Source of the DNA: Gammaproteobacteria bacterium
GTDB lineage: Bacteria > Pseudomonadota > Gammaproteobacteria > JBCCGL01
Assembly (NCBI GenBank): GCA_965277715.1
Contig: OZ255836.1
Coordinates: 704,001 to 768,000, forward strand
Length of the DNA stretch: 64,000 nt
Reading direction: 5' to 3'
Positions 520 to 33,080 of the stretch are shown one piece after another. The position numbers and the translations under genes are program-made. The notes under the pieces were generated by a model that was given only the letters and a program-made list of their open reading frames with translations, had not been told where the DNA came from and searched no databases. Each line of letters starts with the position of its first letter. Within the stretch, counting starts at the first letter, position 1.

Positions 520-566
520 TTCAGGGAGATTGAGCTATCGGCATTGAGTCCCTAATTCCGTTTGGT

Positions 567-1520: not shown

Positions 1521-1525
1521 ATCTT

Positions 1526-2002: not shown

Positions 2003-2003
2003 T

Positions 2004-2114
2004 TGCTAACAAAGCAGTCAAATTGACAGCTTTTCCGTCACTTGTTTATGTGGCGGTCGCTACGCTGCCACAACACAATCAACTACAAAGCTGCAATTTA
2101 CTGCGGCGTTAGAG
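2004..2114 (+). mobile_element. attC site 3 (111 bp)
   Basis: TGCTAAC...GTTAGAG; gcagtcaaattg/caatttactgc, cagcttt/aaagctg; TGCTAAC complements GTTAGCA (1514-1520). Confidence 0.92.
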
Positions 2115-2133
2115 GGCAAAAATAGGAAATACT

Positions 2134-3231
2134 ATGCCAAAGTTTTATGAAGTTTATGGGCGTGATGTTTATGATCAGTCTGAAGTAGCAGTAGCAGAGA
2201 GAAAGGCTGCTTATTGTCCTTTTACTGAAAATGTTTGTGATGGTGGAGGTAATAGGCATCAAACAAAAATAAAACTAGCCGGATCTGAATTACGAGAATT
2301 CTTTAATGATGAACTATCATCAGTTATTCCTGGGATATGCTCTATTCAATATGGTGATGAGACTTGGGTGGTGTGCCCTAGAAGATTGTTTGGTTTCTTT
2401 TCAAGGAGGAATGAAGTTCCTAATATAAATGAATCGTTACATCCTCATGAGCGTGAGGCATTAATTGAGGCTGGAGTACCGAAGGGTGTAGAGTTGGGAG
2501 TATGGCCTGAGGTTTATTTGCAATATGGAGATGAAGACACATCCATAAATTATCATTTTGATTTCGTTATTGCCCCAATACAACGAAACAAACCATTCTC
2601 ATGGTTGTTAGAGTCATACAATATTGGTGATGACGAAGTTGAGGCTTTTAAAGCAGCAGCTAAAACAGGAAAGTATTTAGAAGGTAGATATTCTCCAGAT
2701 AAAGAGCTGGAAATTTTGCCTGATCTCAATTCTCCGATAGTGATCGAAGTGATGACTGCAAGCACTTCGGGTTCAGATAAAGAGGCGAGCACAGATATCG
2801 CTGCTTCATTTACCGATGCAATCAAAGGAAACGACCACAATTGTCCCGGCATTAATAAAAGACAGGTATGGGGTCGCATGGCAACACAACTTTTTGCTAA
2901 ATCTGCTTTGGCTGAAGAGTGGGGAGGAAAAACTATCTGGCTAGTTCAAGATCAACTATTAAAAAATATTGAATTAACGACAAAGTTGAATCTTGATATT
3001 CCAAGTCCAGATTCCTCGGGTACCATTAATTTTCTAAGCATGTCTTATGCGGATGGGCAAAAAGGTACTGAATCACTGCGGTTCCTTAAATACTCAGAGA
3101 AAAGTGCAGGTTTGGATTTTCAAGGCAATCAAATGGCAACTGATATTTTGTTGCCAAAGGTAAATCCAGATAAAAAAGTATTATTGAAAGCTGTCTTACG
3201 CAGAAAACTTTCGGCCATAATTTCTTTATAG
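2134..3231 (+). CDS. NotI-family type II restriction endonuclease
   Basis: Four-Cys N-terminal metal motif (YCPF..CDGGG..GICS..VVCPRR) and FDFVI..IEVMT nuclease core; paired with a C5-MTase. Confidence 0.8.
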   Translation: MPKFYEVYGRDVYDQSEVAVAERKAAYCPFTENVCDGGGNRHQTKIKLAGSELREFFNDELSSVIPGICSIQYGDETWVVCPRRLFGFFSRRNEVPNINESLHPHEREALIEAGVPKGVELGVWPEVYLQYGDEDTSINYHFDFVIAPIQRNKPFSWLLESYNIGDDEVEAFKAAAKTGKYLEGRYSPDKELEILPDLNSPIVIEVMTASTSGSDKEASTDIAASFTDAIKGNDHNCPGINKRQVWGRMATQLFAKSALAEEWGGKTIWLVQDQLLKNIELTTKLNLDIPSPDSSGTINFLSMSYADGQKGTESLRFLKYSEKSAGLDFQGNQMATDILLPKVNPDKKVLLKAVLRRKLSAIISL

Positions 3232-3235
3232 AAAA

Positions 3236-4360
3236 TCAGGCTGCATTTTTCTTTTTGTTGCCAAATAGAGCAAAGTAAATTGCTTTACCCATGGCCTCTG
3301 CAAGAGGCGGTGGTACAGCATTTGCCACTTGCCTGTGCCGGTCTAAATCTTTGACAGTTCCGCTTCTGGCCCGAATAGGGCCTGAAAGTATGTGCGTATC
3401 TGGAAACCCATGTAGCCTAAGATATTCTCTAGGCGTTAGGTAGCGATTTTCCTCCGGATGATAAAACGCTTCACCACCACGAAGTGTAAGAGCCGGAAGG
3501 TCCCACGCCAATCTTCGAAATTTTGTCGTGTCTTTTTCTGGGTTCAATCTTTGCCTTTGGTCGGCAGGTAAGTGTAATTGTCTAGCCAAGCACTCGCCTT
3601 CAGGAACACCGTTTATCCGCTCTCTATCTCGCGGAGGAGTAATATCTAAGTGGCTTGGTATGTTTTCGATACGGCCTTTAAGTACAGGAGACGGGAGGTC
3701 ACCAATAGCGTCTTTCACAGATATATATGGAGCTTTGTCAGTTGAAAAAATATCTTTCTGTTTACTTTTCTTTTTCGGATCAAAGTGAGTTGGGGAGGGA
3801 AATTCAAATTCTCCCCCTTTTACTACACCAACAATAAATACCCTGTCACGTAGCTGAGGCACCCCATAATCTGCTGCTCTCAGAAGTCGAAAAGAAACGT
3901 CGTAACCAATATCTTGAAGGTCGGAGATAACCACTTTTAATGCAGAGCCGCCTATACCATCAGCACCTTTTGCGCTAAGCAACCCTTTGACTTGCTCGAT
4001 CAATACGGCTTTAGGTTTTAAAACTTTTGCGAATTCAATCATTTTATGAAGAAGTAAACCACGGTCATCATCAAGCGATTTTCGATTGCCAATTAAAGAG
4101 AAAGATTGGCATGGTGGCCCACCTGCTAACAAATCTAATTCGCCAACTTTTAAGCCAAGCTGCTTCTTTAAAGAGTGAGGTGATATATCGTTGATATCGG
4201 TTGCTAAGATAGGGTTAACAGATCTTCTGCTACACCAGTTTCTCAATGATTCATGTGCATGCTTATCAATCTCTGAGCAAAAAAGAGGGGTAAAGCCTGC
4301 ATTGTGCAAGCCCTCATCTAGGCCGCCAATGCCGCTGAAGAGTGAAACTAATGTTTTCAT
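3236..4360 (-). CDS. DNA (cytosine-5)-methyltransferase
   Basis: Motifs LFSGIGG, GGPPCQSFS, EQV (ENV variant), PQLRDRVF, RQVANAVPP; likely start MKTLVSLF at 4360. Confidence 0.95.
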   Translation of the reverse strand: MKTLVSLFSGIGGLDEGLHNAGFTPLFCSEIDKHAHESLRNWCSRRSVNPILATDINDISPHSLKKQLGLKVGELDLLAGGPPCQSFSLIGNRKSLDDDRGLLLHKMIEFAKVLKPKAVLIEQVKGLLSAKGADGIGGSALKVVISDLQDIGYDVSFRLLRAADYGVPQLRDRVFIVGVVKGGEFEFPSPTHFDPKKKSKQKDIFSTDKAPYISVKDAIGDLPSPVLKGRIENIPSHLDITPPRDRERINGVPEGECLARQLHLPADQRQRLNPEKDTTKFRRLAWDLPALTLRGGEAFYHPEENRYLTPREYLRLHGFPDTHILSGPIRARSGTVKDLDRHRQVANAVPPPLAEAMGKAIYFALFGNKKKNAA

Positions 4361-4420
4361 AGAAGACCAATTATGGAGATTTTCAAGGAGTATACTCAAG
4401 CTTAATTGATAACGCAAGCG

Positions 4421-4621
4421 TTAGAACATATCTGTTTTTGGTCTTCCTGTTCGCTCCCTTGGCCTAGCAGCAAACTCTCTGACTTTGTCTGGTTCAAGCA
4501 GTTGATCACGGCCAATTTTGGTGGACTCCAGTCTACCCTCGATTATCAACTGCCTTACCCTTGAAGCCGAAACGCCTAATATTGAAGCTGCCTCGCTGGT
4601 TGAAATTAGTTTTTCCGTCAT
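4421..4621 (-). CDS. Small excisionase/HTH_17-like DNA-binding protein, probable R-M controller
   Basis: ISTSEAASILGVSASRVRQLIIEGRL...KIGR wHTH pattern, directly upstream of the MTase. Confidence 0.8.
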   Translation of the reverse strand: MTEKLISTSEAASILGVSASRVRQLIIEGRLESTKIGRDQLLEPDKVREFAARPRERTGRPKTDMF

Positions 4622-4654
4622 TTCAAATTTTGCTCAAAATTGATTTTAACTTGT

Positions 4655-4683
4655 AGTATATTGATCTCTAACAAGCGGTTCAA
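4655..4683 (-). promoter_or_regulatory. Sigma70-like promoter for HTH-MTase: TTGAAC-17bp-TATACT, with the -35 inside attC4
   Basis: + strand AGTATA 4655-4660, 17-bp spacer, GTTCAA 4678-4683. Confidence 0.65.
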
Positions 4684-4783
4684 CGCGGACAGCCAAAACT
4701 CCAGTTGTTTTGTGTATTTCGCTTCGCTCAATTATCACACAAAACAACTTCCGTTTCAGCTGCCGGTTAACCGAGCGTTAGGC
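4666..4783 (+). mobile_element. attC site 4 (118 bp)
   Basis: CTCTAAC...GTTAGGC; cggttcaac/gttaaccg, agttgttttgtgt/acacaaaacaact; CTCTAAC complements GTTAGAG (2108-2114). Confidence 0.92.
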
Positions 4784-4789
4784 AATACA

Positions 4790-5485
4790 ATGAACTGTCC
4801 TCATTCAAAAATAGAAGCTGCACTTGATCGTTGGTCTGAATGTCATTGGCATATTCACCAAATCGAGAGCAACTATCATTCTCCGGGTCTATTTCGCTAC
4901 TCTTTGAACTCATTTATTCGTGCCATTAAAGAGATTCCTCAAATATTAAAAATGGAACTTCAAAACAGCCCGAAATACAGGAAGGTATGTAAGCCTATAA
5001 TCGATGCTCTAAAGTCGGATGAACTACTATCTTTGCTGTCAAAGAAACGTGATTTTATAGTTCATCAGGGCATGTTAAATGTTCTAAGCTCAGGGGTGGC
5101 TGGTACTACTGAAGATCGAGGAATAAAAATGGCTGTAGGCTTTAAAGTTGAGCTATACGAAACAACTGAAGAAGCATATAAAAAATTTAAATATTTGCTT
5201 CGTAAAAATCCCGTAGTAAGAGGTGCAGTTGGACCTGACTGCGATTCATGGCCAATGATTCGCCGAGAGTGGAAAGTTCCTGAGTTAGATAATGAGTTAT
5301 TGGAAGTCGCAATCACGGCCTGGAGATTGTGCGGTGAAGCTATTTCTAAGATAGTTGTAAAACTTGGTGGAGAACCCTTGGATTTATCTTTCCCTTGCAG
5401 GCACGACCCAGAGCGCGTAAAAACTATGGAATTTAGCCAGCAAGAGTTTTTTGATTCAGTAGGTGGCGTGAAAGAAAATGCCTAA
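4790..5485 (+). CDS. Cassette hypothetical protein with HEPN-like RxxxxH motif
   Basis: ATG 4790 just after attC4; helical N-terminus, RDFIVH at 5048-5065; stop within attC5. Confidence 0.6.
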   Translation: MNCPHSKIEAALDRWSECHWHIHQIESNYHSPGLFRYSLNSFIRAIKEIPQILKMELQNSPKYRKVCKPIIDALKSDELLSLLSKKRDFIVHQGMLNVLSSGVAGTTEDRGIKMAVGFKVELYETTEEAYKKFKYLLRKNPVVRGAVGPDCDSWPMIRREWKVPELDNELLEVAITAWRLCGEAISKIVVKLGGEPLDLSFPCRHDPERVKTMEFSQQEFFDSVGGVKENA

Positions 5486-5556
5486 CAAGGCCAGCCAGAG
5501 GGAACAAAAAATCGCCGCTTCGCTCTGGTTTTCGTCCCCTGCTGGCGGCGTTATGC
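5480..5556 (+). mobile_element. attC site 5 (77 bp)
   Basis: GCCTAAC...GTTATGC; gccagccag/ctgctggc; GCCTAAC complements GTTAGGC (4777-4783). Confidence 0.9.
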
Positions 5557-5600
5557 AAAATAAGTTGTGAATCGTACTAATAATTGAATTGGAGAAATGA

Positions 5601-6503
5601 ATGAAGAAAATTTATATGCTTTCAATGTTAGTGGCTGGGTTGCTAATTTCGACATTAGCCACTGCAGTTCCTAAATTTCCGATACAAGAGTCCATGGGCG
5701 GGAAGGCCTTTGGTCATAGCGTAAAAAATATTGGTAATGGGTTGTATGTATTTCGCTGGTGGGTTTATCGAAATATTTTTCTTGTCACTGATGAGGGAGT
5801 TATTGTTACCGACCCAATGAACCCCAAGGCGGCAAAATTATTACGAAACGAGATTCGTAAGGTAACAGACAAGCCGGTGAAATATGTTGTTTATAGCCAT
5901 AATCATCATGATCATATTTCAGGTGGGAATATTTTTGAGGCAGAGGGTGCAAAATTTGTGGGCCATGAGAACCTGCTAAAGGAATTGGGCGATCATCCGA
6001 GTCCAGTAATACCATTGCCAAGTATCACATTTTCAGACAAGCACACATTGACACTGGGTGGTAGAACTTTGGAATTATCCTACTTCGGGCCAAACCATGG
6101 TGAAAGCTTGGTTGTTATGCGGCTTCCGAAAGAGAAGATATTATTTACGGTAGATATTGTCACGCCGCGTAGAGTGGCCTTTCGTGGCATGCCCGATTTT
6201 TGGCCTGATGAGTGGGTAAGATCACTGAAAGAAATAGAGCAGATGGATTTTGACTATGTCATCTCGGGCCACGGGCCAGAAAATCAACCTGCAATAGATC
6301 CTGCCTCAATTGTTGCAGAGCAACGCATATATTTAGAAGATTTGATGGCAGCTGTAAAAAAAGCAATGGATTCAGGAACTCACAGCCCTGATGCATTAAG
6401 AAAAACCGTTAAGCTTCCTAAGTATGAAAACTGGCAATACTACAAAGAATGGCTCCCAATGAATATTGAGCGCATATGGGCTTATTATCATATGGGATGG
6501 TGA
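5601..6503 (+). CDS. Secreted MBL-fold metallo-hydrolase (cassette)
   Basis: Signal peptide; SHNHHDH, NHG, D, GHG metal ligands. Confidence 0.9.
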   Translation: MKKIYMLSMLVAGLLISTLATAVPKFPIQESMGGKAFGHSVKNIGNGLYVFRWWVYRNIFLVTDEGVIVTDPMNPKAAKLLRNEIRKVTDKPVKYVVYSHNHHDHISGGNIFEAEGAKFVGHENLLKELGDHPSPVIPLPSITFSDKHTLTLGGRTLELSYFGPNHGESLVVMRLPKEKILFTVDIVTPRRVAFRGMPDFWPDEWVRSLKEIEQMDFDYVISGHGPENQPAIDPASIVAEQRIYLEDLMAAVKKAMDSGTHSPDALRKTVKLPKYENWQYYKEWLPMNIERIWAYYHMGW

Positions 6504-6512
6504 TAGCCAATC

Positions 6513-6561
6513 GCATAACAATGCATTGCACCGGACTTCGCCGGTGAATGCGGCGTTAGAA
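6513..6561 (+). mobile_element. attC site 6 (49 bp, very short)
   Basis: GCATAAC aat gcattGcaccgg acttcg ccggtgaatgc ggc GTTAGAA; GCATAAC complements GTTATGC (5550-5556). Confidence 0.88.
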
Positions 6562-6576
6562 ACCTTGGAGAGTTAA

Positions 6577-6996
6577 GTGACAGACCGAAAACGTACCGTC
6601 GGTAGCGTAAAATCTGAACTGATCTCCAAGCCTTGGGAGACTGCGTTCGCTGCGATCAAGATTTTCAATGATCCATTAATATCTTTTAAGTGCGAAGCAT
6701 TTATTATCTTAATGGTCATTGCTTGGACCTATCTTCTACATGCATATTATCGGGCTAATGGAATTGAATACCGTTACTACCGGTAAGGCCCAAAACGCAA
6801 TATTTTTGATCGTACCAAGAAAAATGTGCACAAATATTGGGAGTTGGAACGCTGTCTTAATTGCAATAAATCTCCAATTGACCAAAGCACGGCAAACAAT
6901 CTCAGATTTTTAATCGGGCTTAGGCACAAGATTGAACATCAAATGACGAAATCGCTTGATTCATACTTGAGCGTGTTTGAAAGTGTCTGTCCCTGA
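6577..6996 (+). pseudogene. DUF3644 (HEPN-like) protein pseudogene, last cassette
   Basis: FNDPLISFK..FIILMVIAWTYLLHAYYR; in-frame TAA at 6784-6786, frame continues GPKRNIFDRT..YWELERCLN..NLRFLIGLRHKIEHQMT, truncated near 6972. Confidence 0.8.
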
Positions 6997-7286
6997 CACT
7001 CTTGGGAGAAATGCTACAAACAATAATTGATCGAAATGACATGAATATAGTGCCATGACGGTACAAAAAAATTTAATTTATTGTTTTTATTATATTCTTT
7101 AAGGATCAGTATCAAAGATGAGTTAGGGAAGTACCATTCGGTACTGAGTTCTTTAACGTACAGATAATTTGCCAGTCCAAACCCTCATAACTATAACTCA
7201 ACACCGCATCGCCACATCTGTGCTTCGGCACATTTTCCATGCCGTTAACTCGTTGGCATTATGAACGTGTAGCACCAAAGGATAAG

Positions 7287-7339
7287 AGGGGCAAATCTAT
7301 AAGCTTCCATAAAAATAATTAAATAATAGATTTGCCCCT
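7287..7339. repeat. Perfect 14-bp inverted repeat AGGGGCAAATCTAT with AT-rich loop (REP-like or terminator)
   Basis: 7287-7300 and 7326-7339, just downstream of the mgdA-like stop. Confidence 0.6.
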
Positions 7340-7352
7340 TATTTCTACCCAA

Positions 7353-8696
7353 TCAGCTCCAGGGAAACGGGCTATTTGAAACAGGGTGCAGTCTACCTTC
7401 AGCGTAACGTGAGAACCGGAATGGATCGAGTAGCTTCGTTGCACCGCCTGAAGCAATTTCTTCAGCAACCAGCTTACCGACACCAAGCATTTTGTAACCG
7501 TGGTTAGAGTCGGCGATTAAATACAGGTTGTCGCAAAATACATCGAATACGGGGAAGCTGTCTGGGGTGAATGCACCGATGCCACCAGATGGCTCGTTTT
7601 TGTACACATCCAGCGTGCCTTCAAAACGTTTTTGGCAATGCGCCAATGCCGATACCCACATATGGGCAAAGTCGGGGCCGACAATAAATTCTGGCGATTC
7701 AGGGCCATAGGGGTCGACAGCGACTTTGTCTGGATCAGTAGGCACTTTGAAAGGCGCTGCGCCACCTTGAATGCCACCGAAATGGAAGTCGGGTTTGTAG
7801 TAAATGCCCCACATTTCATCGGTAATAAGTGAACCATCTTCGGTTGAGTAGAGCGGGGCATTGGAGTCGACGTGAATAACCGGCGGCATTTTGCCATCGT
7901 TGGTTTTTTGTACTTCGGGGTCGACACCCAGGGTGCCTTCTTGTAATGACCAGTAAACCCACATGGGGATATTGTCGTGCATGCTGCCATCTGCACCTTT
8001 GATTGAAACCGTTTTGGGCAGATCCAGCATGTCCCACACGGTCTTGGCCCAGGGACCTACACCGGCGACAACGTAATCACAGGCAATGTTGCCCTTGCTG
8101 GTTTCGACATGGGTGATCGCGCCGCTGGCATCACGTGTAAATCCGTTGACCGGGACACCTGTGATGATGCGCACACCTGCCGCTTCTGCTTTGGTGGCGA
8201 GGCCGTAAATGGCTACCGTGTTATTGGCATAGCCGCCACGCTTTTCGTGCAATACCGAGGTAATGCCCTGTGCCTGCCAATCGTGAAAAATATTTTTCAT
8301 GTACGCCATGCTGTCGGCCTCGCCTTCGATAAAGGTGGATTCGTAGCCGATTTCCTTTTGTTCTCTGGCGATTTGTGCCACATCAGAGTGCATGCTTTCT
8401 GGGCTGATTTGCATATAACCCACGGGGTGGTAGCCGAAGTCGCTGGCATTTTCTTCCCACACACCCACGCTGTGGGCCATTAACTCACGCATGGCGGGCT
8501 GAAAGTAATTGTTGCGCACCACTCCGCAGGCGATGCCGGAGGCGCCCGCAGCAATGGCGGTTTTGTCGATGACGAGGATGTCGCTGCCATCGCCGGTACC
8601 CTTGGCTTTCAGTTGTTGCGCCAGGTGCCAGGCGGTGCTGAGACCGTGGATACCCGCGCCGATAATGACGTATTTGGATGACTCTGGAAATGCCAT
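7353..8696 (-). CDS. FAD-dependent oxidoreductase, N-methylglutamate dehydrogenase subunit A / sarcosine oxidase beta-like
   Basis: IIGAGIHGLSTAWHLA, GASGIACGVVRNNY, ADSNHGYKM. Confidence 0.8.
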   Translation of the reverse strand: MAFPESSKYVIIGAGIHGLSTAWHLAQQLKAKGTGDGSDILVIDKTAIAAGASGIACGVVRNNYFQPAMRELMAHSVGVWEENASDFGYHPVGYMQISPESMHSDVAQIAREQKEIGYESTFIEGEADSMAYMKNIFHDWQAQGITSVLHEKRGGYANNTVAIYGLATKAEAAGVRIITGVPVNGFTRDASGAITHVETSKGNIACDYVVAGVGPWAKTVWDMLDLPKTVSIKGADGSMHDNIPMWVYWSLQEGTLGVDPEVQKTNDGKMPPVIHVDSNAPLYSTEDGSLITDEMWGIYYKPDFHFGGIQGGAAPFKVPTDPDKVAVDPYGPESPEFIVGPDFAHMWVSALAHCQKRFEGTLDVYKNEPSGGIGAFTPDSFPVFDVFCDNLYLIADSNHGYKMLGVGKLVAEEIASGGATKLLDPFRFSRYAEGRLHPVSNSPFPWS

Positions 8697-17568: not shown

Positions 17569-18384
17569 ATGGCAAAACTATCGGCAAACCTGGGGTTTCT
17601 ATGGCCGGAACTGAGCCTTTGTGAGTCCATTGGCGCAGCCGCTAAAGCGGGGTTTGATGCCGTGGAATGTCATTGGCCTTATGCTGTCCCATCGAGCCAG
17701 GTGGCGATCATACTGCAAGCCGTCAATTTGCCTATGCTGGGCCTGAATACCCGGCTGGGTGAACAGTCCGGTGACTTCGGTTTGGCCGCTGTATTAGGGC
17801 GTGAAGCGCAGGTACGTTCGTATATCGACGAAGCGGTTCTCTACGCCCAGTCCATCGGTTGTTGCAATGTGCATGTTATGGCGGGTAAAACAAATGGCAG
17901 TCAGCGAGCCGAGGCGGTCTATCAGGCAAACCTGGCCTATGCCTGTGACCTGGCAGCACCTTATGGCATCACGGTGCTAATTGAACCAATCAATCATCGC
18001 GATGTACCTGGTTATCACCTCAGTACTGTTGAAGCGGCAATAGCCACAATTGATGCAGTGGGTAAACCCAATCTTAAACTGATGTTCGATTGTTACCATA
18101 CGCAGATCATGCAGGGCGATGTATGCATGCGTTTGCACATGTCTCTAAATTACATAGGGCACATTCAAATCGCCGCTGTACCCGATAGAAGTGAACCCAA
18201 CAACGGAGAGCTGGACTACACCTATGTAATCAATGCCCTCGATACTATGGGTTATGACGGTTTTATCGGGGCTGAATACAGACCCAGAGAATCGACAGAA
18301 AGTGGTTTATCGTGGATGAATACAGTGCAGCGTAATGCTGAACCCGACAGACTCCTGGACGACCGCAATCAGGATTCCCGCTAA
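17569..18384 (+). CDS. Hydroxypyruvate isomerase family TIM-barrel protein
   Basis: SANLGFL, LIEPIN, MFDCYHTQ, HIQIA.VPDR.EP, GAEY. Confidence 0.9.
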   Translation: MAKLSANLGFLWPELSLCESIGAAAKAGFDAVECHWPYAVPSSQVAIILQAVNLPMLGLNTRLGEQSGDFGLAAVLGREAQVRSYIDEAVLYAQSIGCCNVHVMAGKTNGSQRAEAVYQANLAYACDLAAPYGITVLIEPINHRDVPGYHLSTVEAAIATIDAVGKPNLKLMFDCYHTQIMQGDVCMRLHMSLNYIGHIQIAAVPDRSEPNNGELDYTYVINALDTMGYDGFIGAEYRPRESTESGLSWMNTVQRNAEPDRLLDDRNQDSR

Positions 18385-19627: not shown

Positions 19628-20524
19628 ATGACCCATAAACTGGTTCGCTTTGACTGGGCAATAAAAAAGCTTCTTCGTGATAAAGCTAATTTCGATATTC
19701 TGGAAGGCTTTCTGACGGTAGTGTTGTCGGAACCGGTAGTGATTGAGCAGATTCTGGAAAGCGAATCCAATCAGGAAGCCGGAGGTGATAAGTTTAATAA
19801 AGTCGATTTGTTGGTTAGAAATAGCCGGGACGAGTTGATTATCATTGAAGTTCAGAACAACAAGGAATACGACTACTTCCAGAGAATGCTCTACGGCACG
19901 GCCAAGGTCATTACCGAGTATGTCGAATTGGGGCAGGCCTATGCCCAGGTTAAAAAAGTGTACTCTATTACTGTGGCATACTTTGATTTAGGACAGGGGG
20001 ATGATTATGTATACCATGGTAAAACCGAATTTCGGGGTATTCATAATAAGGAACAGCTACAACTTGCGGCCAAACAAGTAGAACTGTTCAATAAAAACCA
20101 AGTACATGAAATTTACCCCGAATACTGGATTATTAAGGCGGATAAGTTCAATGACCAGGTAGGTGATAATCTGGATGAATGGGTCTATTTTCTAAAACAC
20201 AGTAAAATACCAGAAGAGTTTGATGCGCCTGGATTGTCGGCGGCTAGGGAGAAACTCCACGAGCTGCGTTTATCTGACGCAGAGCGACAACAATATCTGG
20301 CATTTCAAAAGCGCCTTCATGATCTGGCTAGTGAGCGTTTTACCCAGGAAGTTGATTTTGCTGATTTGCTCAAAAAACGTGAACAACAGGGAATAAAGCA
20401 AGGTATTGAACAAGTTGCGATTAGTGGTATAAAAACAGGTTTGGATAATCCAACCATCATGCAACTGACCGGTCTCACAGAAAAACGGGTTAACGCTTTG
20501 AGAACCGGGTTGGAAAAATCGTAA
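19628..20524 (+). CDS. Rpn family PD-(D/E)XK nuclease / putative transposase
   Basis: FDWAIKKLL, DKFNKVDLLV..IIIEVQN, QGIKQGIEQ C-terminal repeats. Confidence 0.88.
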   Translation: MTHKLVRFDWAIKKLLRDKANFDILEGFLTVVLSEPVVIEQILESESNQEAGGDKFNKVDLLVRNSRDELIIIEVQNNKEYDYFQRMLYGTAKVITEYVELGQAYAQVKKVYSITVAYFDLGQGDDYVYHGKTEFRGIHNKEQLQLAAKQVELFNKNQVHEIYPEYWIIKADKFNDQVGDNLDEWVYFLKHSKIPEEFDAPGLSAAREKLHELRLSDAERQQYLAFQKRLHDLASERFTQEVDFADLLKKREQQGIKQGIEQVAISGIKTGLDNPTIMQLTGLTEKRVNALRTGLEKS

Positions 20525-20849: not shown

Positions 20850-22355
20850 TTACTGTGTTTTTCTGGGGTAGAAAAATTCCAATGGCTCCGGTATTCCACA
20901 ACTGTTGATTATGCGTGCATGTTCACGCCGAAGCGACCGGGGTTCTCTGGCACCACACGAATGGGCGATAATCTCCACTTCCTTGGTCATATTCAGCGCA
21001 TAGGCTTTAACCCGCTCTGCTTTATTGGTGGGATCCAAGCCTTTCTGCAATTTCTTGTTATGCGTGGTGATCCCGGTAGGGCAGGTGTTTTTGTTGCATT
21101 GCAGGGCTTGGATACAACCCAGTGAAAACATGAAACCACGGGCGGTGTTGACAAAATCGACACCAACGCAAAGCGCCCATGCCACTGCAGAGGGGTTAAT
21201 CAACTTGCCTGATGCAATGAGTTTTATCCGGCCCTTGAGATCGTGATCCACTAGCGTATCCACGACCAGCGGTAGACTGATTTTGAGCGGCATGCCCATA
21301 AAATCCATCAGGCTCTGCGGCGCAGCTCCCGTGCCACCATCGGCGCTATCGACAGTGATAAAATCTGGAGCGGATTGTTTACCGCGCTCGTTAATCTTGA
21401 CACATAACGCTTCCAGCCAGCCGATATCGCCAATAACGGTTTTGAAACCAACCGGTTTGCCAGTTATTTCACGAATATGATGAATTTTGTCCAGTAAGTT
21501 ATCCAGGCTGCGAATATCGGTATGACCATTGGGGCTGATAGAATCTTCGCCTATCGGGATACCGCGAATAGCGGAGATTTCTGGCGTTACCTTACCGCCG
21601 GGAAGAATGCCACCTTTACCGGGTTTAGCCCCCTGGCTGAGTTTGATTTCAAACATCCGAATCTGCTCATGTGCAGCGATGATTTTTAAGCGCTCGTCCG
21701 ACAAATTGCCCGCCTCATCCCGCACACCGTATTTAGCGGTGCCGATCTGAAAAATAACATCACACCCCCCAGCCAGGTGATGATCGGATAGGCCACCTTC
21801 TCCCGTGTTCATCCAGATCCCCGCTGCTTTCGCACCGTTTGACAAAGCCAGCACCGCAGGTGTTGAAAGTGCGCCGTAGCTCATCGCGGATATGTTGATA
21901 ATAGCGTTAGTGGTAAAAGGCGTGCGCGCCACGCCCTCGCCAACCGTCACACTGGCCGGCGGGATGATCTCCTTTTTCAGTACCGGAAAAATATCGTTCA
22001 CGAAAATAACGTCACCGGGGCGGTCTAAGGGGTGGGTGGAACCGAAGGCCACTGTGGTATCAGTATTTTTTGCAGCGCGGTATGCCCAGGACCTTTCGGC
22101 GCGGTTAAACGGTAGCTCCTCACGATCCATAGCAAAAAAATACTGGCGAAAAAATTCACCCATATGTTCAAAAAAGTAGCGAAATCGACCGATAACAGGG
22201 TAATTTCTGCGTATCGTTTGGTCTTTCTGGGTTACATCGACAATATAGAGATACAGTATAAACAGCAGCGCCAAGCCGAAGCAAAATACCAGTAAGAGTG
22301 AGGAAAACTCTATTATGTCCATCGACCAACGTTGAAATACATCTAAGTGCTGCAT
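20850..22355 (-). CDS. FMN-binding glutamate synthase family protein (membrane-anchored)
   Basis: SAMSYGALS, NTGEGG, EIKLSQGAKPGKGG, CIQALQCNKNTCPTGITT. Confidence 0.93.
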   Translation of the reverse strand: MQHLDVFQRWSMDIIEFSSLLLVFCFGLALLFILYLYIVDVTQKDQTIRRNYPVIGRFRYFFEHMGEFFRQYFFAMDREELPFNRAERSWAYRAAKNTDTTVAFGSTHPLDRPGDVIFVNDIFPVLKKEIIPPASVTVGEGVARTPFTTNAIINISAMSYGALSTPAVLALSNGAKAAGIWMNTGEGGLSDHHLAGGCDVIFQIGTAKYGVRDEAGNLSDERLKIIAAHEQIRMFEIKLSQGAKPGKGGILPGGKVTPEISAIRGIPIGEDSISPNGHTDIRSLDNLLDKIHHIREITGKPVGFKTVIGDIGWLEALCVKINERGKQSAPDFITVDSADGGTGAAPQSLMDFMGMPLKISLPLVVDTLVDHDLKGRIKLIASGKLINPSAVAWALCVGVDFVNTARGFMFSLGCIQALQCNKNTCPTGITTHNKKLQKGLDPTNKAERVKAYALNMTKEVEIIAHSCGAREPRSLRREHARIINSCGIPEPLEFFYPRKTQ

Positions 22356-24435: not shown

Positions 24436-25356
24436 TTAACCACCGAGTGACTCACCGATGTTAAACCCACTGCTGATGGCATAATCTGAGGCGCTGATTT
24501 TGCCTGCACCGGTGGGCCGTACACGGCTTATCAACACGCCTTGTGTATCACCTGTAGCAATCAAAATACCCGCATCACTGATATTAACGATAGTGCCAGG
24601 CTTTCCCTGTACATCGTCAACACAACGGCTGTCGTAAATTTGCAGGGTTGTGCCCTGGTGTGTTGTCCAGGCGCCCGGTTGCGGGTTGGCAGCGCGAATT
24701 GTGTTGTAGATGGTCGTTGCCGGTTTGTGCCAGTCAACTTCTGCCTGTGCCTTGCCAAACCAGGATTCGTAGCTGCCTTCATCAAGGTTTTGTTTGATGC
24801 GGGGTGCGGTGCCCGCTTTAACCTGATCGAGGGATTCGATCATGGCGTCCACACCCATGGGGAACAGTTTTTTGAAATAGACATCGCCGAGTGTTTCATC
24901 CGGGCCAATCTCACAGGTTTTTTGCATCAATATCTCACCTTCATCAAGACCCTCGTTAGGCCAGAATATCGATAGGCCGGTGTGTGTTGACCCCATCGCT
25001 ATGGGCCAGTTGATCGATGAGGGGCCACGGTGTAGGGGAAGCAGGGAAGGGTGGTATTGAAAAGAACCCAGTTTGGGGGCGTCGAGCACCGATTGAGGAA
25101 TGAATAATAGTACATAGGCCATGATGCATATATCCGCATCAAAAGACTGCATCAACGCCAGGGATTCAGGTGCTTTCCAGGAAGCGGGCTGGTGCACTGG
25201 CAGGCCTTTTTCCAGTGCCAGTTCTTTTAGCGGGTCGAGCGGCCTGCCTTCTTTATCGGGTGCGGTGCATACCGCAACGATATTTTCATCGCGTTCCAGC
25301 AGGCGCTCTAATACGCCACGCCCAAAAGCCTGTTGCCCATGTATGACGATACGCAT
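24436..25356 (-). CDS. Formyltransferase, Fmt fold, ALDH1L1 hydrolase-domain-like
   Basis: GQQAFG, PDKEG..DPL, QYHPSLLPLHRGPSSINW, IFWPNEGLDEG, LFPMGV. Confidence 0.85.
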   Translation of the reverse strand: MRIVIHGQQAFGRGVLERLLERDENIVAVCTAPDKEGRPLDPLKELALEKGLPVHQPASWKAPESLALMQSFDADICIMAYVLLFIPQSVLDAPKLGSFQYHPSLLPLHRGPSSINWPIAMGSTHTGLSIFWPNEGLDEGEILMQKTCEIGPDETLGDVYFKKLFPMGVDAMIESLDQVKAGTAPRIKQNLDEGSYESWFGKAQAEVDWHKPATTIYNTIRAANPQPGAWTTHQGTTLQIYDSRCVDDVQGKPGTIVNISDAGILIATGDTQGVLISRVRPTGAGKISASDYAISSGFNIGESLGG

Positions 25357-25368
25357 AGTGATTCGCTC

Positions 25369-26619
25369 CTAAACGGCGCCAGAAGAGTGGATTTCAGCAA
25401 TTTCATCATCGCTGTATTCCAGTACCTGGCTGAGGATTTCATCGGTGTGTTCACCGAGCAGTGGGGAGCGCGTTACCTCCACATCGGAGTCCGATAGTTT
25501 AATTGGACAACCAACACTCAGGTAGCTGCCACGCTCGGGGTGGTCGACTTCGACGATAGTGCCGGTCTCACGCAGTGAAGGTTCCTCGGCGATTTCCTTC
25601 ATGGATAGAATTGGCCCCACCGGAATATCCAGCGGGTTGCAAATATCCATGACCTCGTATTTGGTTTTTGTCATGGTCCATGCTTCGATAGCTGCGAATA
25701 CTTCATTGAGACGCGATAGGCGGGCGGGTGGGGTCGCGTAATCCGGGGCTTCCCGCCATTCAGGCTTACCAATGACATCGCAGATTTTGCCCCAGACGGC
25801 GGCTTGGGTAATAAAGTAGGTATAGGCGTTTGCGTCTGTCTCCCAGCCCTTGCATTTGAGAATACGGCCCGGTTGGCCACCGCCTGAGTCATTGCCGGCA
25901 CGCGGAGTCGCATCATCAAAGGGAATACCTTCACCGTATTGTGAATATTCTTTTAATGGGCCGTGTTTCAGGCGTTGTTGGTCGCGCAGTTTAACCCGGC
26001 ACAGATTGAGCACACCATCCTGCATTGGGGCGAGTACACGCTGCCCACGCCCGGTTTTTTCGCGTTGTAATAGGGCTGCGGTGATCCCCAATGCGAGGTG
26101 TAGGCCAGTACCGGAGTCACCGATTTGCGCACCGGTTACCATGGGTACACCGCCCAGTGCACCTGTGGTCGAGGCGGCGCCTCCAGCACACTGTGCAACG
26201 TTTTCGTAGACTTTGCAGTCTTCGTAAGGGCCGGGGCCGAAGCCTTTGACTGAGGCCATGATCATGCGTGGGTTGAGTGCCTGAATACGCTCCCAGCTAA
26301 ACCCCATGCGATCCAGTGCGCCGGGGGCAAAATTTTCCACCAATACATCGCACTTCCTGACCAGCCGTTCGAGCACTTGTTTGCCGGTTTCATTTTTAGA
26401 GTTGAGTGTGAGCGAACGTTTATTGTGGTTGAGCATAGTGAAATAGAGACTGTCTGCACCTTCAACATCGACCAATTGCTTGCGAGTGGCATCGCCAACA
26501 CCAGGGCGCTCCACTTTAATCACATCGGCGCCCATCCAGGCCAATAACTGGGTACAGGTAGGGCCGGACTGGACATGGGTAAAGTCCAGAATTCTTAAAC
26601 CATCGAGTGCTTTAGACAT
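25369..26619 (-). CDS. frc: Formyl-CoA transferase
   Basis: [52 protein letters not shown] loop. Confidence 0.95.
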
Positions 26620-28540: not shown

Positions 28541-29227
28541 CTATTTAAGATAGTCCACGTATTTTTCAACGTGTTTCGCCAGCTCCAGTGCGTGGTCGCG
28601 CACCAGTTGCTCTGCGTGGTAGGCGTCCCGTTCTTCAATCGCCTCGATAATCCGAATGTGATCGATCACTGAACGCGATACCCTGTCGCGCTCTTTAATT
28701 GTGCTGGTGCGGATAGCGCGCATATGAAAAAACAATTGATCCGACATTTGTTTAATGAGGGGGGATTTCCCCAGTTTGATAATCGTTTGGTGAAAGTTGA
28801 TATTGGTATCGGAGTACTCATCGATATGGGCGCGTACCTCATCGGTATCGTCAAAGGTGGCAAATACCGTGCGTAGATGGGCTATTTCCGCATCGCTGGA
28901 GCGCACTGTTGCCAGCCTTGCCGCCATACTTTCCAGGGCGGCCCAGACGTCAATTATGTCCAGTACTTCGTCTTTGGTTTTGCGTACCACGAAGGCCCCA
29001 CGGCGGGGAATGGTTTTTACCAGGCCCTCTTGCTCAAGCCGGGATATAGCCTCGCGGACGGGGGTTCGGCTAACCCCAAGTTGATCTCCGAGCGCACGCT
29101 CATCCAGCCGGGGGGGTTCATGGTTGGAGTAAATATCCATATGGCTAATGACTTCCTTGAGTGCATCATAGACACGTGCCTTAAGCACTTTTGTTGGTTC
29201 CAGCGGTAAAATGGCTACTGTCATCAC
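28541..29227 (-). CDS. GntR (FCD) family regulator
   Basis: LGVSRTPVREAISRLEQEGLV, NINFH..DH..H. Confidence 0.95.
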   Translation of the reverse strand: MMTVAILPLEPTKVLKARVYDALKEVISHMDIYSNHEPPRLDERALGDQLGVSRTPVREAISRLEQEGLVKTIPRRGAFVVRKTKDEVLDIIDVWAALESMAARLATVRSSDAEIAHLRTVFATFDDTDEVRAHIDEYSDTNINFHQTIIKLGKSPLIKQMSDQLFFHMRAIRTSTIKERDRVSRSVIDHIRIIEAIEERDAYHAEQLVRDHALELAKHVEKYVDYLK

Positions 29228-29483: not shown

Positions 29484-31001
29484 TTAGGTACGGTTGCGTA
29501 TTTTACCGTAAAGCATCATAAACAAAGGCATGAAAAGCAATAACATTGCTATAACCATAATAGGCCCGGCGTAAGGGCGGTTAAAAAAGATCGAAAACGA
29601 TCCACCACTGATTAACAACGATTGACGCAGGGCAGGTTCAGCCAGTGGCCCCAAGACGATGGCCAGTACCGCAGGCGCCAGCGGGTAGTCGAGTTTGCGC
29701 ATGAGGTAGCCGACAATACCGAAGGTCAGCATCAGCCACAAATCGTGCATACTCTGTGTGGGGGCATAGCCGCCAATCAGGCATAGCACAAAAATGATCG
29801 GTGCAAGGATAGTGAACGGCGTTTTCAGTATTTTGATAAATACCGGAATAAACGCAACATTGATAATCACCGCAAACAGATTAGCAGCATATAAGGAGGC
29901 AATTAGCCCCCAAACAAAATTACTGTGTTCAACAAATAACAACGGCCCAGGCTCCAGTCCCCAGATAACCATGCCACCCAGTAAGATAGCGGTGGTCGGT
30001 GACCCCGGAATACCCAGCGTCAGCATCGGTAACATTGAACCCGTGCTGGCGGCATTGTTCGCCGCCTCTGGAGCGCATACCCCCTCAACGGCACCGTGGC
30101 CAAATTTCTCAGGCTCTTTGGAAATTTGTTTAGCAATACCGTAGGCCATCAGTGAGCCTGGTGTTGCCCCTGCTGCGGGTAAAATACCGACAAAGTAACC
30201 CAAAAATGAACCCATCACAGACGCTTTCCAGGTGCTCAACAACTCGCGCAGGTTATCCATTGTACGTTTGACGGTGACTGTGGCCTCAGACAACATGCTT
30301 TTACCGCCGCCCAGGCAGTGTTCTTCCACTGTCCAGAGCATTTCGCCAATACCGTAAATGCCAATGGCCAGCACCAAAAAATTAATGCCATGCAAAAAAC
30401 CGGTGATATCACCAAAGATCAGGCGGGGTTCGCCAGAGAGAATATCGAGCCCCACCGCGCTTAATACCAGGCCAATGCAGATGGAAAACAAGGTTTTGTA
30501 AAGGTCATCCCCACCCAACCCGACAAAGGTGGCAAAGGCCAACATCATCAGGGCAAACTCTTCTGGTGCACCAAATACCAGCGCAACGTGCGCCAGGGGC
30601 GGGGCAAAGAAGGTGAATAAAATGACAGAGATAGTGCCGCCGATGAAAGAAGCGACAGCGGCGGCGGTAAGTGCCTTGTCAGCCAGGCCCTGTTTAGCAA
30701 GTGGTCGTCCGTCGAATGTTGTTGCCACGGCAGTAGAGGCCCCGGGAATACCGAGCATCACCGAGGAAATAGCGCCGCCATACATTGCGCCGTAGTAAAT
30801 AGCGGCGAGAAATATAATCGCACCGGTAGGTGGCACCAGAAATGTCAGGGGCAGTAGTATGGCTACGCCGTTAACTGAACCCAGGCCCGGCATTGCGCCG
30901 ATAAATAGCCCCAGTGCACAGCCAACGAAGATCAGCATTAAATTCAACGGTTCAAATACTGTGACAAAACCGTCTGCCAGGAATCCCAGAATTTCAAACA
31001 T
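29484..31001 (-). CDS. tctA: Tripartite tricarboxylate transporter permease TctA
   Basis: GAMPGLG, YYGAMYGG, APEAANNA, LTLGIPGS. Confidence 0.93.
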   Translation of the reverse strand: MFEILGFLADGFVTVFEPLNLMLIFVGCALGLFIGAMPGLGSVNGVAILLPLTFLVPPTGAIIFLAAIYYGAMYGGAISSVMLGIPGASTAVATTFDGRPLAKQGLADKALTAAAVASFIGGTISVILFTFFAPPLAHVALVFGAPEEFALMMLAFATFVGLGGDDLYKTLFSICIGLVLSAVGLDILSGEPRLIFGDITGFLHGINFLVLAIGIYGIGEMLWTVEEHCLGGGKSMLSEATVTVKRTMDNLRELLSTWKASVMGSFLGYFVGILPAAGATPGSLMAYGIAKQISKEPEKFGHGAVEGVCAPEAANNAASTGSMLPMLTLGIPGSPTTAILLGGMVIWGLEPGPLLFVEHSNFVWGLIASLYAANLFAVIINVAFIPVFIKILKTPFTILAPIIFVLCLIGGYAPTQSMHDLWLMLTFGIVGYLMRKLDYPLAPAVLAIVLGPLAEPALRQSLLISGGSFSIFFNRPYAGPIMVIAMLLLFMPLFMMLYGKIRNRT

Positions 31002-31073: not shown

Positions 31074-31577
31074 TTATAAAAACAGCTTGTACAGTGGGTA
31101 AAACAGGGGTTCGGTAATACCTTTGGGTAGTGTGATGTTCAGGGTTATTTCAAAAAAGTAAAAGGTGATTATGGGTGTGAGAATCGACACAGCCACCGAC
31201 AACGTCCAGGAATGCTTACCCAGATAACGCAAATAAAACAGCAGGAATAAAGGCAGGGCGGCGTAGAGGCCAATAAATGAAAACAACCCAACTGTTACAA
31301 TCAGGGAAATGGCAACTGCGCCGACATCCATTAATACCGGTGTCTGGATAAAGGCTTTGTCCGAGGTGGCAACCGGGCCGTGTTTGCGAAACCAGTTAAA
31401 CAGGATACCAATACACGAAACCAGCATAATGGCCGATAACCAGAAAGGCCAGGCACCACCGCCCGGTCCTTCGTCTTCAATCCACCCTATGGGTAATTCG
31501 GCACTCTTATACATTAAGTAAATGGAGAAAACCCCCATCAACAGGCCCATTAACAATTCAGCCGTTCGAACCGTCAT
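31074..31577 (-). CDS. tctB: TctB small membrane subunit
   Basis: 4-5 TM, GPGGGAWP, LPKG; between tctC and tctA. Confidence 0.88.
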   Translation of the reverse strand: MTVRTAELLMGLLMGVFSIYLMYKSAELPIGWIEDEGPGGGAWPFWLSAIMLVSCIGILFNWFRKHGPVATSDKAFIQTPVLMDVGAVAISLIVTVGLFSFIGLYAALPLFLLFYLRYLGKHSWTLSVAVSILTPIITFYFFEITLNITLPKGITEPLFYPLYKLFL

Positions 31578-31792: not shown

Positions 31793-32782
31793 TTACTTAA
31801 TAACGCCCATTTCTTTGAGCATTTCACCGTGTATATCGCGCTCACGTTTCCAGTAGGCCATTAATTCATCACCGGTCAACAGGTCACCCTGAAGGCTCTT
31901 TTTGTTGCGGTATTCCTGCCATTTATCTGAGTTAAATACGCGGGTGAACAAATCGGTGTAATACGCTGCTGCTTCATCACTCATGCCCGGCGCGCCGACA
32001 ACGGTGCGCTGCATAAAGTACACAAAATCCTGATCCAGCTCACGGAAAGTGGGTGTATCCGGAAACAGGGGCAGACGATTAGGGGTAAATGCCGCGAGGG
32101 CTTTGGTTTTACCCGCTTCATAGAAGCCGAGTTGTTCAGAAGGGTTGTTAACGGTTGAATCGGCGTTGTTACCTGCCAGCTCTTTGGCTACCTTGCCGCC
32201 CCCTTTGTAGGGGACATACTTCATATCCAGGTCATAGGCGGTATTCAGGAAGTCGGTTAGCAGGTTATCTTCAGAGTTCTTACCTGTACCGGCCATAATC
32301 CATTTATTGCCTTTGGATTTTGCCGCTTTGACAAAGTCGGCCACGTTGTTAATGTCTTTGCGGTCTGAATTTACCCATAACAGAAAGGTGTCTTCTGCCA
32401 TGCGGGCAACCGGCGTGAAGGTGGCAATATCGATACCGAGCTTCGGTTGGCGTAGCGGCGTGGTGTAAAAGCTGTTTAGCGTAAACATGATGGTGTGATC
32501 GTCACCGTCCTTACCTTTCATGTGCACCAGCGCTTCAGCACCGGAGCCACCGGGCTTATTGACAGGGGTAAATGGCACAGGTGCCATATTTTCTGAGGCA
32601 ATAATACTCTGCATCAGGCGCACAGCTTTATCAGCGCCGCCGCCTTTGCCTGCCATAACCACAAACTCGACGGGTTTTTTAGGTTCCCAGGCGGCTTGTA
32701 CTATGGCGGGCAGGCTGATCAGCATAGTGCTGACACCCACCGCACAGACCAGTTTTTTCAAGGTGTGTTTCGATTTAAACAT
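31793..32782 (-). CDS. tctC: TctC/Bug substrate-binding protein
   Basis: Signal peptide, AGKGGGAD, NKPGGSG, VPYKGGG. Confidence 0.92.
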   Translation of the reverse strand: MFKSKHTLKKLVCAVGVSTMLISLPAIVQAAWEPKKPVEFVVMAGKGGGADKAVRLMQSIIASENMAPVPFTPVNKPGGSGAEALVHMKGKDGDDHTIMFTLNSFYTTPLRQPKLGIDIATFTPVARMAEDTFLLWVNSDRKDINNVADFVKAAKSKGNKWIMAGTGKNSEDNLLTDFLNTAYDLDMKYVPYKGGGKVAKELAGNNADSTVNNPSEQLGFYEAGKTKALAAFTPNRLPLFPDTPTFRELDQDFVYFMQRTVVGAPGMSDEAAAYYTDLFTRVFNSDKWQEYRNKKSLQGDLLTGDELMAYWKRERDIHGEMLKEMGVIK

Positions 32783-33080
32783 TAGGATTTTTCCTCCACT
32801 TGTTAATGGATCTGTTGACGATCCAAAAAATCGGCATTTCAGTGTGTAATACACTCAAACACCGCTTGTCGGGTTCCAGCGAGGGCGCCCGAACACTAGA
32901 ATGCCGTATCAAGGCATTGTATTTATCGTATACCACGTTCTTTTCGCCATGGGCAATAAGTGCTCTTTAGAAAGCGCTAAACCGACCGAAGCATTTTCCA
33001 GGCGTAAACGCTTTATTGGCAAATTAACGATGATCGTCAGTTTGTCCGCCGTGCTGAATGTATTTTTATTTATGACAGAT

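Follow-up and report, generated by a model that had tools for sequence, protein, structure and literature searches.

A formyltransferase-fold protein encoded beside frc is a candidate 10-formyltetrahydrofolate:CoA formyltransferase in proteobacterial oxalate gene clusters

We analyzed a gene, here termed fmtL, in a 64,000-nucleotide stretch of DNA from Gammaproteobacteria bacterium (assembly GCA_965277715.1, contig OZ255836.1, positions 704,001 to 768,000; this whole stretch is referred to as the window). The gene belongs to an unbroken minus-strand row of tctC, tctB, tctA, a GntR/FCD regulator gene, a thiamine pyrophosphate (TPP) enzyme gene, frc, fmtL, and P606. The first three encode the periplasmic binding protein TctC (31793..32854), the small membrane subunit TctB (31074..31577), and the large membrane subunit TctA (29484..31001) of a tripartite tricarboxylate-type transporter, each recognized by its Pfam model (TctA, E 6e-149). 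They are followed by a regulator of the GntR/FCD family (28541..29227; Pfam GntR and FCD), a 584-amino-acid non-canonical TPP enzyme of the 2-hydroxyacyl-coenzyme A (CoA) lyase/oxalyl-CoA decarboxylase (HACL/OXC) superfamily (P0003, 26671..28425; NCBIfam, solved relatives), and formyl-CoA:oxalate CoA-transferase (Frc; P0002, 416 amino acids, 25369..26619). Frc is bona fide, with 695 bits on TIGR03253 (cut-off 504) and 714 bits on NF003809 (cut-off 442). FmtL itself (P0001, 306 amino acids, 24436..25356) is a stand-alone formyltransferase resembling the N-terminal domain of ALDH1L1, as judged from Pfam, NCBIfam, structures, and a tree. Neither fhs, def, a second fmt, nor a PanE-like gene was found within the window.

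Direct reading of the sequence placed the ATG of fmtL at 25356, 12 nucleotides past the frc stop codon (spacer 25357..25368, minus strand), with a Shine-Dalgarno-like AGGAG overlapping that stop codon. A consensus scan of the minus strand found no terminator-like site in this gap, and according to the open reading frame (ORF) map the operon leaves no space that could hold a carrier-protein gene. The protein matched Pfam Formyl_trans_N (E 1.4e-26) and Formyl_trans_C (E 1.2e-21). The original prediction, made from the DNA alone, had described an Fmt-fold gene 12 bp after frc with a set of motifs, and DNA and translation agreed with it throughout: GQQAFG (residues 7-12), PDKEG..DPL (33-43), QYHPSLLPLHRGPSSINW (100-117), IFWPNEGLDEG (130-140), and LFPMG (164-168).

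Among solved structures, the best relatives of FmtL by sequence were the hydrolase domains of ALDH1L1, also called 10-formyltetrahydrofolate (10-formyl-THF) dehydrogenase or FDH (1s3i, E 2e-55, 191 bits). Weaker matches were obtained to E. coli Fmt (1fmt, E 7e-46, 160 bits), ArnA (98 bits), and HypX (47 bits, E 1.4e-11). An AlphaFold (AF2) model of FmtL, computed from a 48-sequence alignment, reached a predicted local distance difference test (pLDDT) score of 96.7, and a Foldseek search ranked by E-value put FDH domains at the top (4qpd, E 2.4e-37; also 2cfi and 1s3i). The FDH key residues Phe89, His106, Arg114, Asp142, and Tyr200 (PMC4388273) and Ser108 (PMC6802093) align with F85, H102, R110, D138, Y196, and S104 of FmtL. 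H102 and S104 were invariant, and D138 and R110 nearly invariant, in the 48-sequence alignment. The ALDH1L1 likeness named in the original prediction was thus confirmed at the level of both rank and key residues.

FmtL shares with the ALDH1L1 N-terminal domain the same two-domain fold, the GQxxFG motif, a short PDKxG loop, xYHPSLLPxHRGxSxINW, and LFPxG. Both lack the catalytic Asn, which is replaced by Gln in FmtL and by Ile104 in FDH; this Asn is described as crucial for FMT, ArnA, and GART (PMC4388273). The two differ in architecture, as only two Fmt domains were detected in FmtL with Pfam and neither an acyl-carrier-protein-like nor an ALDH domain was found, whereas the true ALDH1L1-type fusions P0185 and P0202 carry PP-binding and Aldedh domains. 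FmtL is moreover bacterial and encoded in an oxalate operon, and its thiol partner would be free CoA, not a tethered 4'-phosphopantetheine.

The closest characterized relatives carry out, or are proposed to carry out, the chemistry named by the original prediction, namely formyl transfer between 10-formyl-THF and a pantetheine thiol. In vitro, the isolated N-terminal domain of FDH needs thiol at millimolar levels to hydrolyse 10-formyl-THF. This thiol occupies the position of the N10-formyl group, and the full-length enzyme is proposed to use the thiol of 4'-phosphopantetheine instead (PMC4388273, PMC8748788). For the HypX N-terminal domain, formyl transfer from 10-formyl-THF to free CoA, giving formyl-CoA, has been proposed (PMC6802093). 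Both characterized Asn-less lineages therefore appear to take a pantetheine thiol as acceptor, and FmtL has the same sequence signature. HypX (PDB 6j0p among its structures) resembles FmtL in having an Fmt-fold domain with His and Asp kept and a non-Asn residue, Ile, at the N-x-H position. It is otherwise distant (19% identity, template modelling (TM) score 0.70 to FmtL), carries Asp80 where the triad has Ser, and is fused to an enoyl-CoA-hydratase-like decarbonylase domain serving hydrogenase maturation. Such a domain is missing from the oxalate-operon protein FmtL and present, as ECH_1, in the true HypX-type protein L099 (567 amino acids).

FmtL and methionyl-tRNA formyltransferase (Fmt) share the fold (TM 0.90-0.95), approximately 30-35% identity, the HxSLLPxxRG core, and presumably the substrate 10-formyl-THF. 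On TIGR00460, FmtL scored 170.4 bits, below the equivalog cut-off of 201.5. We further compared the families in a quick IQ-TREE phylogeny (model LG+G4, with SH-aLRT as the sole support measure and the long HypX branch as the root) of 109 rows: 87 of the 150 best cluster representatives (those of 290-345 amino acids were kept), 11 FmtL proteins, five canonical Fmt proteins, the N-terminal parts of four ALDH1L1-type fusions and of one HypX-type protein, and one Fmt-fold ORF (L096). All five canonical Fmt proteins fell in a 50-row clade (SH-aLRT 99) that, in line with the original prediction, left FmtL outside. FmtL was found in the other clade, of 58 rows (SH-aLRT 81, then 94), which also takes in the ALDH1L1-type fusions and numerous proteins of ~300 amino acids that stand alone.

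The two clades also differed at the active site. The Asn of the N-x-H motif, which the original prediction had reported missing from FmtL, was present in 50/50 rows of the Fmt clade and in 0/58 rows of the other, where the site holds Gln in 38, Cys in 6, Ile in 4, Glu in 3, and other residues in 7; the window protein has Gln100. The long basic loop after the QPDRP motif of Fmt takes part in tRNA recognition. The loop following PDK/QPDRP had 14 residues in 49 of the 50 Fmt-clade rows and at most 9 in all 58 others; with 9, that of FmtL is five residues shorter. FmtL proteins were also acidic, with isoelectric points of 4.9-5.7 in 10 of 11 (L076 is near neutral), whereas the C-terminal domains of the canonical Fmt proteins of the same genomes were basic (net +1 to +8); this charge contrast is suggestive only.

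A separate fmt was encoded in all five genomes with a close FmtL homologue (G001-G005, 66-73% identity), scoring 266-283 bits on TIGR00460, and def lay directly upstream of it in the four of these that were examined. Each of the five also encodes PurN. Relatives of FmtL are named 'methionyl-tRNA formyltransferase' in all sources seen. In a database search 7996 of 8000 scored candidates matched, ordinary proteins of the Fmt superfamily included, and the close relatives were 73-81% identical. The family to which FmtL belongs almost certainly does something other than its name says.

We examined the gene context of FmtL in relatives with a scan that took one genome per species and gave 229 relatives; the counts below cover the best 80 of the 229 (65-78% identity). 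Gammaproteobacterial carriers were Arenicellales, Poriferihabitaceae, Granulosicoccaceae, and unclassified marine metagenome-assembled genomes, and alphaproteobacterial carriers were Puniceispirillales, Hyphomicrobiaceae, Kiloniellaceae, Aurantimonas, Paracoccaceae, and others. Cultured strains of Denitrobaculum, Hyphomicrobium, Aurantimonas, Palleronia, and Pelagibius underlie loci L037, L076, L045, L047, and L041. Directly upstream of FmtL, 71 of 75 evaluable loci had Frc, three GntR, and one a TPP enzyme. Directly downstream, 42 of 67 evaluable loci had formate-THF ligase (Fhs; PF01268 894 bits, NF010030 939 bits) and 11 a PanE/ApbA-like reductase, while 11 neighbours had no query match and Usp, TctB, and AceK occurred once each. 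Anywhere in the 80 loci, Frc was found in 75 (75-90% identical across loci), GntR in 59, TctA in 50, Fhs in 49, TctC in 46, TctB in 41, P606 in 21, and a PanE-like gene in 15. The nearest relatives (L001-L003, L006-L008, L010, and L014) have the order FmtL, PanE-like, P606, and the window goes directly from FmtL to P606. Exactly one fhs was present in each of G001-G005, and in G003-G005 it adjoins FmtL (L051, L037, and L076; ~8.9-10.7 kb). The proteobacterial cluster is thus composed of GntR, oxc or an alternative TPP enzyme, frc, fmtL, often fhs, and tctCBA, with fmtL as its third conserved gene.

Some further members and neighbours of the cluster were observed. The TctCBA transporter, as one of its conserved members, is a candidate for the uptake of oxalate; among the loci inspected, none showed an antiporter of the OxlT type. 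In sponge-associated and Arenicellales loci (L012, L017, and L021, ~10.0-11.8 kb; L019, L020, and L049), FmtL and the PanE-like gene are followed by AceK, the isocitrate dehydrogenase kinase/phosphatase, which links the cluster with control of the glyoxylate shunt.

The TPP enzyme gene occupies the oxc slot of the cluster. The original prediction had taken its product for the source of formyl-CoA, and a plain oxalyl-CoA decarboxylase (Oxc) was not what we found: the window enzyme scored 225 bits on the Oxc model NF006721 (cut-off 557) and stayed under every other NCBIfam cut-off as well (PRK05858, 455 of 587; actinobacterial HACL, 364 of 600). Its best solved relative was an actinobacterial 2-hydroxyacyl-CoA lyase (E 2.4e-79), ahead of the oxalyl-CoA decarboxylases. 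Across 68 evaluable loci, the slot held canonical Oxc in 43 (978-1028 bits on TIGR03254), an enzyme of the window type in 22 (78-93% identical to that of the window; L009-L015, L017-L022, L051, L060, L070, L078, and L079 among them), and neither in 3. In G001-G003, which carry the window type, canonical Oxc over cut-off was found nowhere in the genome. On the simplest reading of this exchange, the window enzyme is probably an isofunctional, non-canonical oxalyl-CoA decarboxylase and a candidate second type.

The tie to frc was also evident in two broader genome samples. In 301 alphaproteobacterial genomes drawn evenly, we counted as FmtL-like the proteins found at E <= 1e-60 (41-67% identity; canonical Fmt appears at ~1e-30 to 1e-40). 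FmtL-like proteins were present in 23 genomes and Frc over cut-off in 26; 21 had both, two FmtL only, and five Frc only (Fisher p = 1.5e-25, shared ancestry ignored). Without the unpublished genome G245, Frc was present in 20 of 22 FmtL-bearing genomes (p = 1.6e-24). Of the two FmtL-only genomes, one has the gene at a contig edge and the other has a Frc-like gene under the cut-off. Where both occurred, the genes were adjacent in 14 genomes, ~10 kb apart in one, and on different contigs of draft assemblies in six, and the adjacent pairs include FmtL-like proteins merely 48-57% identical to that of the window. Among 331 genomes sampled across Pseudomonadota, 18 had Frc over cut-off, and seven of these had an FmtL-like protein (44-73% identity), adjoining frc in six and ~8 kb off in one. 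Co-occurrence with frc, which the original prediction had named as a check, goes far beyond chance in the alphaproteobacterial sample.

From the observed family placement, residue conservation, synteny, and co-occurrence, we infer CoA as substrate, reversibility, and a net direction. FmtL would accordingly be a reversible 10-formyl-THF:CoA formyltransferase that couples the folate one-carbon (C1) pool to the formyl-CoA pool of Frc and Oxc, with the formyl-CoA-forming direction favoured; by analogy with ALDH1L1 and HypX we put this forward tentatively, at somewhat less than an even chance. The proposed reaction is 10-formyl-THF + CoA-SH <-> formyl-CoA + THF. THF would be bound as in the ALDH1L1 N-terminal domain, and Asp138, positioned by His102 and Ser104, would activate the thiol for attack on the N10-formyl group.

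For each oxalate, the Frc/decarboxylase cycle gives back one formyl-CoA, which is consumed in activating the oxalate that follows, with no net formation of formyl-CoA. Withdrawal of oxalyl-CoA breaks this cycle, as when an enzyme of the PanE2 type reduces it to glyoxylate (PMC8411744, PMC13409138); PanE2 of M. extorquens has been characterized as a putative oxalyl-CoA reductase (PMC8411744). Formyl-CoA itself has a half-life of 1.9 h, and YfdE was proposed as a separate 'priming' enzyme for E. coli (PMC3720670). FmtL would then act as a reversible valve between a small, labile, purely catalytic formyl-CoA pool and the folate C1 pool. Together, Fhs and FmtL would convert formate, an abundant product, through 10-formyl-THF to formyl-CoA at the cost of one ATP, and this route would prime and replenish the Frc/Oxc cycle. 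Combined with Frc, the route would achieve a net activation of oxalate at any time when oxalyl-CoA is drawn off, for instance by the putative oxalyl-CoA reductase of the PanE-like kind whose gene adjoins fmtL in the closest relatives. The transfer to CoA, probably uphill, would need the pull of Frc and of the irreversible decarboxylation, just as decarbonylation pulls the reaction of HypX. We propose that fhs, fmtL, and frc stand side by side because Fhs and FmtL refill formyl-CoA for Frc. Since Fhs is the usual downstream neighbour, FmtL looks built to act with Fhs and not in its stead.

A stronger form of this proposal, which we consider possible and rather doubtful, is that Fhs and FmtL make up a two-step, reversible, ADP-forming 'formyl-CoA synthetase' working through 10-formyl-THF. 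Run forward with Frc, it would provide ATP-driven net activation of oxalate on catalytic amounts of formate and THF, and would allow oxalate to be assimilated through reduction of oxalyl-CoA to glyoxylate. In the reverse direction, oxidation of glyoxylate or glycolate would be accompanied by conservation of the formyl-CoA thioester in the form of ATP.

Several observations weigh against a CoA-directed transfer toward formyl-CoA. Formyl transfer in that direction is probably uphill by several kJ/mol. The assignment of CoA as the likely substrate draws on homology and gene context, and the modelled fold is no discriminator between Fmt and FDH likeness because Fmt structures superpose on the FmtL model (TM 0.90-0.95) as well as or better than FDH structures do (0.85-0.89). 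In the tree, quick and with its long HypX root, the ALDH1L1 group nests among other stand-alone proteins, so that FmtL appears not as its sister but merely as a member of the same 58-row clade. The window itself is without fhs and a PanE-like gene. At three Paracoccaceae loci (L034, L065, and L066), FmtL occurs without frc, with GntR upstream and divergent SucCD-like genes (ADP-forming CoA ligase) adjacent. More distant relatives, those of P0149 (40-47% identical to FmtL), showed other contexts: no Frc, Oxc, or Fhs was found at 80 metagenome loci, where a glutamyl-tRNA synthetase gene lay upstream in 23 and SucCD-like genes were present in seven (L114, L127, L132, L140, L145, and L162 among them). 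The SucCD-like neighbours at the Paracoccaceae and metagenome loci, joined at the latter by HpcH/CitE-like and GlcD-like genes, mark a further setting of the CoA and glyoxylate kind. Because these distant relatives show no Frc, Oxc, or Fhs, the linkage to frc reaches down to ~44-48% identity and does not extend to the whole clade.

The distribution of YfdE gave the proposal no support. YfdE (acetyl-CoA:oxalate CoA-transferase, encoded in E. coli yfdXWUVE) is a possible functional analogue only, proposed as a primer of Frc/Oxc (PMC3720670); it differs from FmtL in having the unrelated fold of the family III CoA-transferases and in drawing its thioester from acetyl-CoA. The complementarity expected between the two was not seen, as YfdE was found in one of five Frc-positive, FmtL-lacking genomes of the alphaproteobacterial sample and in none of 11 of the phylum sample. 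Over cut-off, it occurred in a single genome of the 301 (G074, Frc-positive and FmtL-negative, gene ~1.4 kb from frc) and in none of the 18 Frc-positive genomes of the phylum sample. The distribution of YfdE is too sparse to back or reject a priming role.

The alternative that survives best keeps the chemistry and reverses the net flow: formyl-CoA + THF would give 10-formyl-THF + CoA, oxalate-derived C1 units would enter folate, and reversed Fhs could yield formate and ATP. We regard this as unlikely, though it deserves more weight than the alternatives that follow. This direction is probably downhill thermodynamically. It would also be sensible where a CoA-acylating dehydrogenase of the PanE/ApbA type produces net oxalyl-CoA from glyoxylate, as has been proposed for ApbA2 of C. 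necator (PMC7486775). In 11 of the 67 loci the gene after FmtL is PanE-like, and several loci have genes for glyoxylate and malyl-CoA metabolism nearby, with MtkA and a CitE-like gene at L070 and genes for HpcH/CitE-like lyases and GlcD-like oxidases at some metagenome loci of the P0149 relatives. With oxalate as the substrate, however, no net formyl-CoA arises, so diverting it would halt the activation of oxalate unless a further CoA donor were supplied at a cost, and no ATP is saved. FmtL is moreover linked tightly to frc (71/75) and fhs (42/67), and not to a net source of oxalyl-CoA. For the ATP-saving route envisaged by the original prediction, in which formyl-CoA would pass into folate without Fhs, the precedent for the chemistry in the closest characterized relatives, the non-Fmt identity of the protein, and the tie to frc hold; the lack of net formyl-CoA, the presence of Fhs directly downstream in most loci, and the adjoining position of the sole fhs in three of five genomes speak against it. 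ATP-free entry of formyl-CoA into folate is plausible only where oxalyl-CoA arises from glyoxylate.

FmtL might instead be a hydrolase that releases formate, either from 10-formyl-THF, in the manner of PurU or the isolated ALDH1L1 N-terminal domain, or from formyl-CoA with THF as mediator (EC 3.1.2.10). The isolated domain does hydrolyse 10-formyl-THF in vitro (PMC8748788, PMC4388273), and formyl-CoA hydrolase has been without an assigned gene since 1963 (PMC10192776). Yet this hydrolysis needs non-physiological thiol levels and is doubted in vivo (PMC8748788). A 10-formyl-THF hydrolase adjoining formate-THF ligase, as at 42 of 67 loci, would create an ATP-wasting futile cycle, and hydrolysis of formyl-CoA would drain the very cycle that the operon encodes. 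A hydrolytic role therefore seems improbable to us.

We give about as little credence to formylation of some other acceptor, be it a sugar nucleotide, a metabolite with an amine group, or a carrier protein that is encoded elsewhere and offers its pantetheine arm. The Fmt superfamily holds many N-formyltransferases, among which ArnA, WbkC, and FdtF match FmtL at lower scores, and a sequence cannot tell the acceptor. N-formyltransferases, however, keep the catalytic Asn (PMC4388273) that FmtL lacks, no amino-sugar, lipid A, or carrier-protein gene is present in the operon, and co-occurrence is specifically with frc. That FmtL is a second, specialized methionyl-tRNA formyltransferase, as database names and the common two-domain fold would have it, is very hard to reconcile with its score below the TIGR00460 equivalog cut-off, the loss of both the Asn and the 14-residue loop, its acidity beside the basic C-terminal domain of Fmt from the same genomes, and the separate fmt in all five relatives' genomes.

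The genes frc and oxc are the markers used to track oxalotrophy. If the two-step synthetase proposed above exists, proteobacterial oxalotrophy would have a third, widespread component that has so far been missing, and nature would have an enzyme that yields formyl-CoA starting from formate. Two points are unsettled, the source of the first formyl-CoA and the replacement of the thioester when oxalyl-CoA is withdrawn; a third gene conserved in 21 of the 26 Frc-positive alphaproteobacterial genomes sampled is directly relevant to them. The one enzyme proposed as a primer is E. coli YfdE (PMC3720670), and no gene is listed for EC 2.8.3.2 or EC 3.1.2.10 (PMC10192776). The full text searched, which excludes most subscription journals, held no report that places a formyltransferase in frc/oxc clusters or describes a 10-formyl-THF:CoA formyltransferase in stand-alone form. 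The chemistry has precedents in the ALDH1L1 N-terminal domain and HypX; the stand-alone form, the place in oxalate catabolism, and the pairing with Fhs appear to be new. In synthetic C1 metabolism, formyl-CoA has been sought from formate by screening promiscuous acyl-CoA synthetases (PMC8511477), and the step from formyl-CoA to folate has been routed via free formate and FtfL (PMC11961710). A natural 10-formyl-THF:CoA formyltransferase, if confirmed, would be a useful part there. For annotation, a large family that carries the tRNA-formyltransferase name is almost certainly misnamed.

The gene that ends the row in the window, P606 (22546..24366, minus strand), encodes a conserved 606-amino-acid P-loop protein with the Walker-A motif GASASGKST. 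It matched Pfam Zeta_toxin weakly, at 20.9 bits under a cut-off of 22.3, and no solved relative was found at E up to 1. P606 ends the oxalate cluster in 21 of 80 loci from both Alpha- and Gammaproteobacteria (~14.8-16.6 kb in L029, L030, L037, L041, and others). Its identity with AceK, which has a similar position in sponge-symbiont loci, was considered and rejected, as the two showed no similarity (BLASTP E 0.66). After P606, on the same strand, comes a 501-amino-acid protein (20850-22355) whose only match is the FMN-type 'conserved region in glutamate synthase'; it was not seen behind P606 in L001.

Outside this row, the window consists of ordinary chromosomal DNA of a gammaproteobacterium (rpsB-tsf-pyrH-frr ... 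dnaE-accA-tilS). A gene resembling hydroxypyruvate isomerase and 2-oxo-tetronate isomerase, under both cut-offs, lies at 17569-18384 on the plus strand, and may reflect glyoxylate/glycerate-pathway metabolism near the oxalate operon. A 572-amino-acid ORF at 53082-54800 (minus strand) scored 266.5 bits on the LegP zinc-metalloprotease model (cut-off 300), its single NCBIfam row. GC content was lower at positions 1-8000 (0.41-0.44, compared with ~0.50 elsewhere), where a dcm-type cytosine methyltransferase is encoded at 3236-4417, and a gene for an Rpn-family PD-(D/E)XK recombination-promoting nuclease was found at 19628-20524 on the plus strand. The low-GC stretch and the Rpn-family gene may mark mobile or island DNA flanking the operon.

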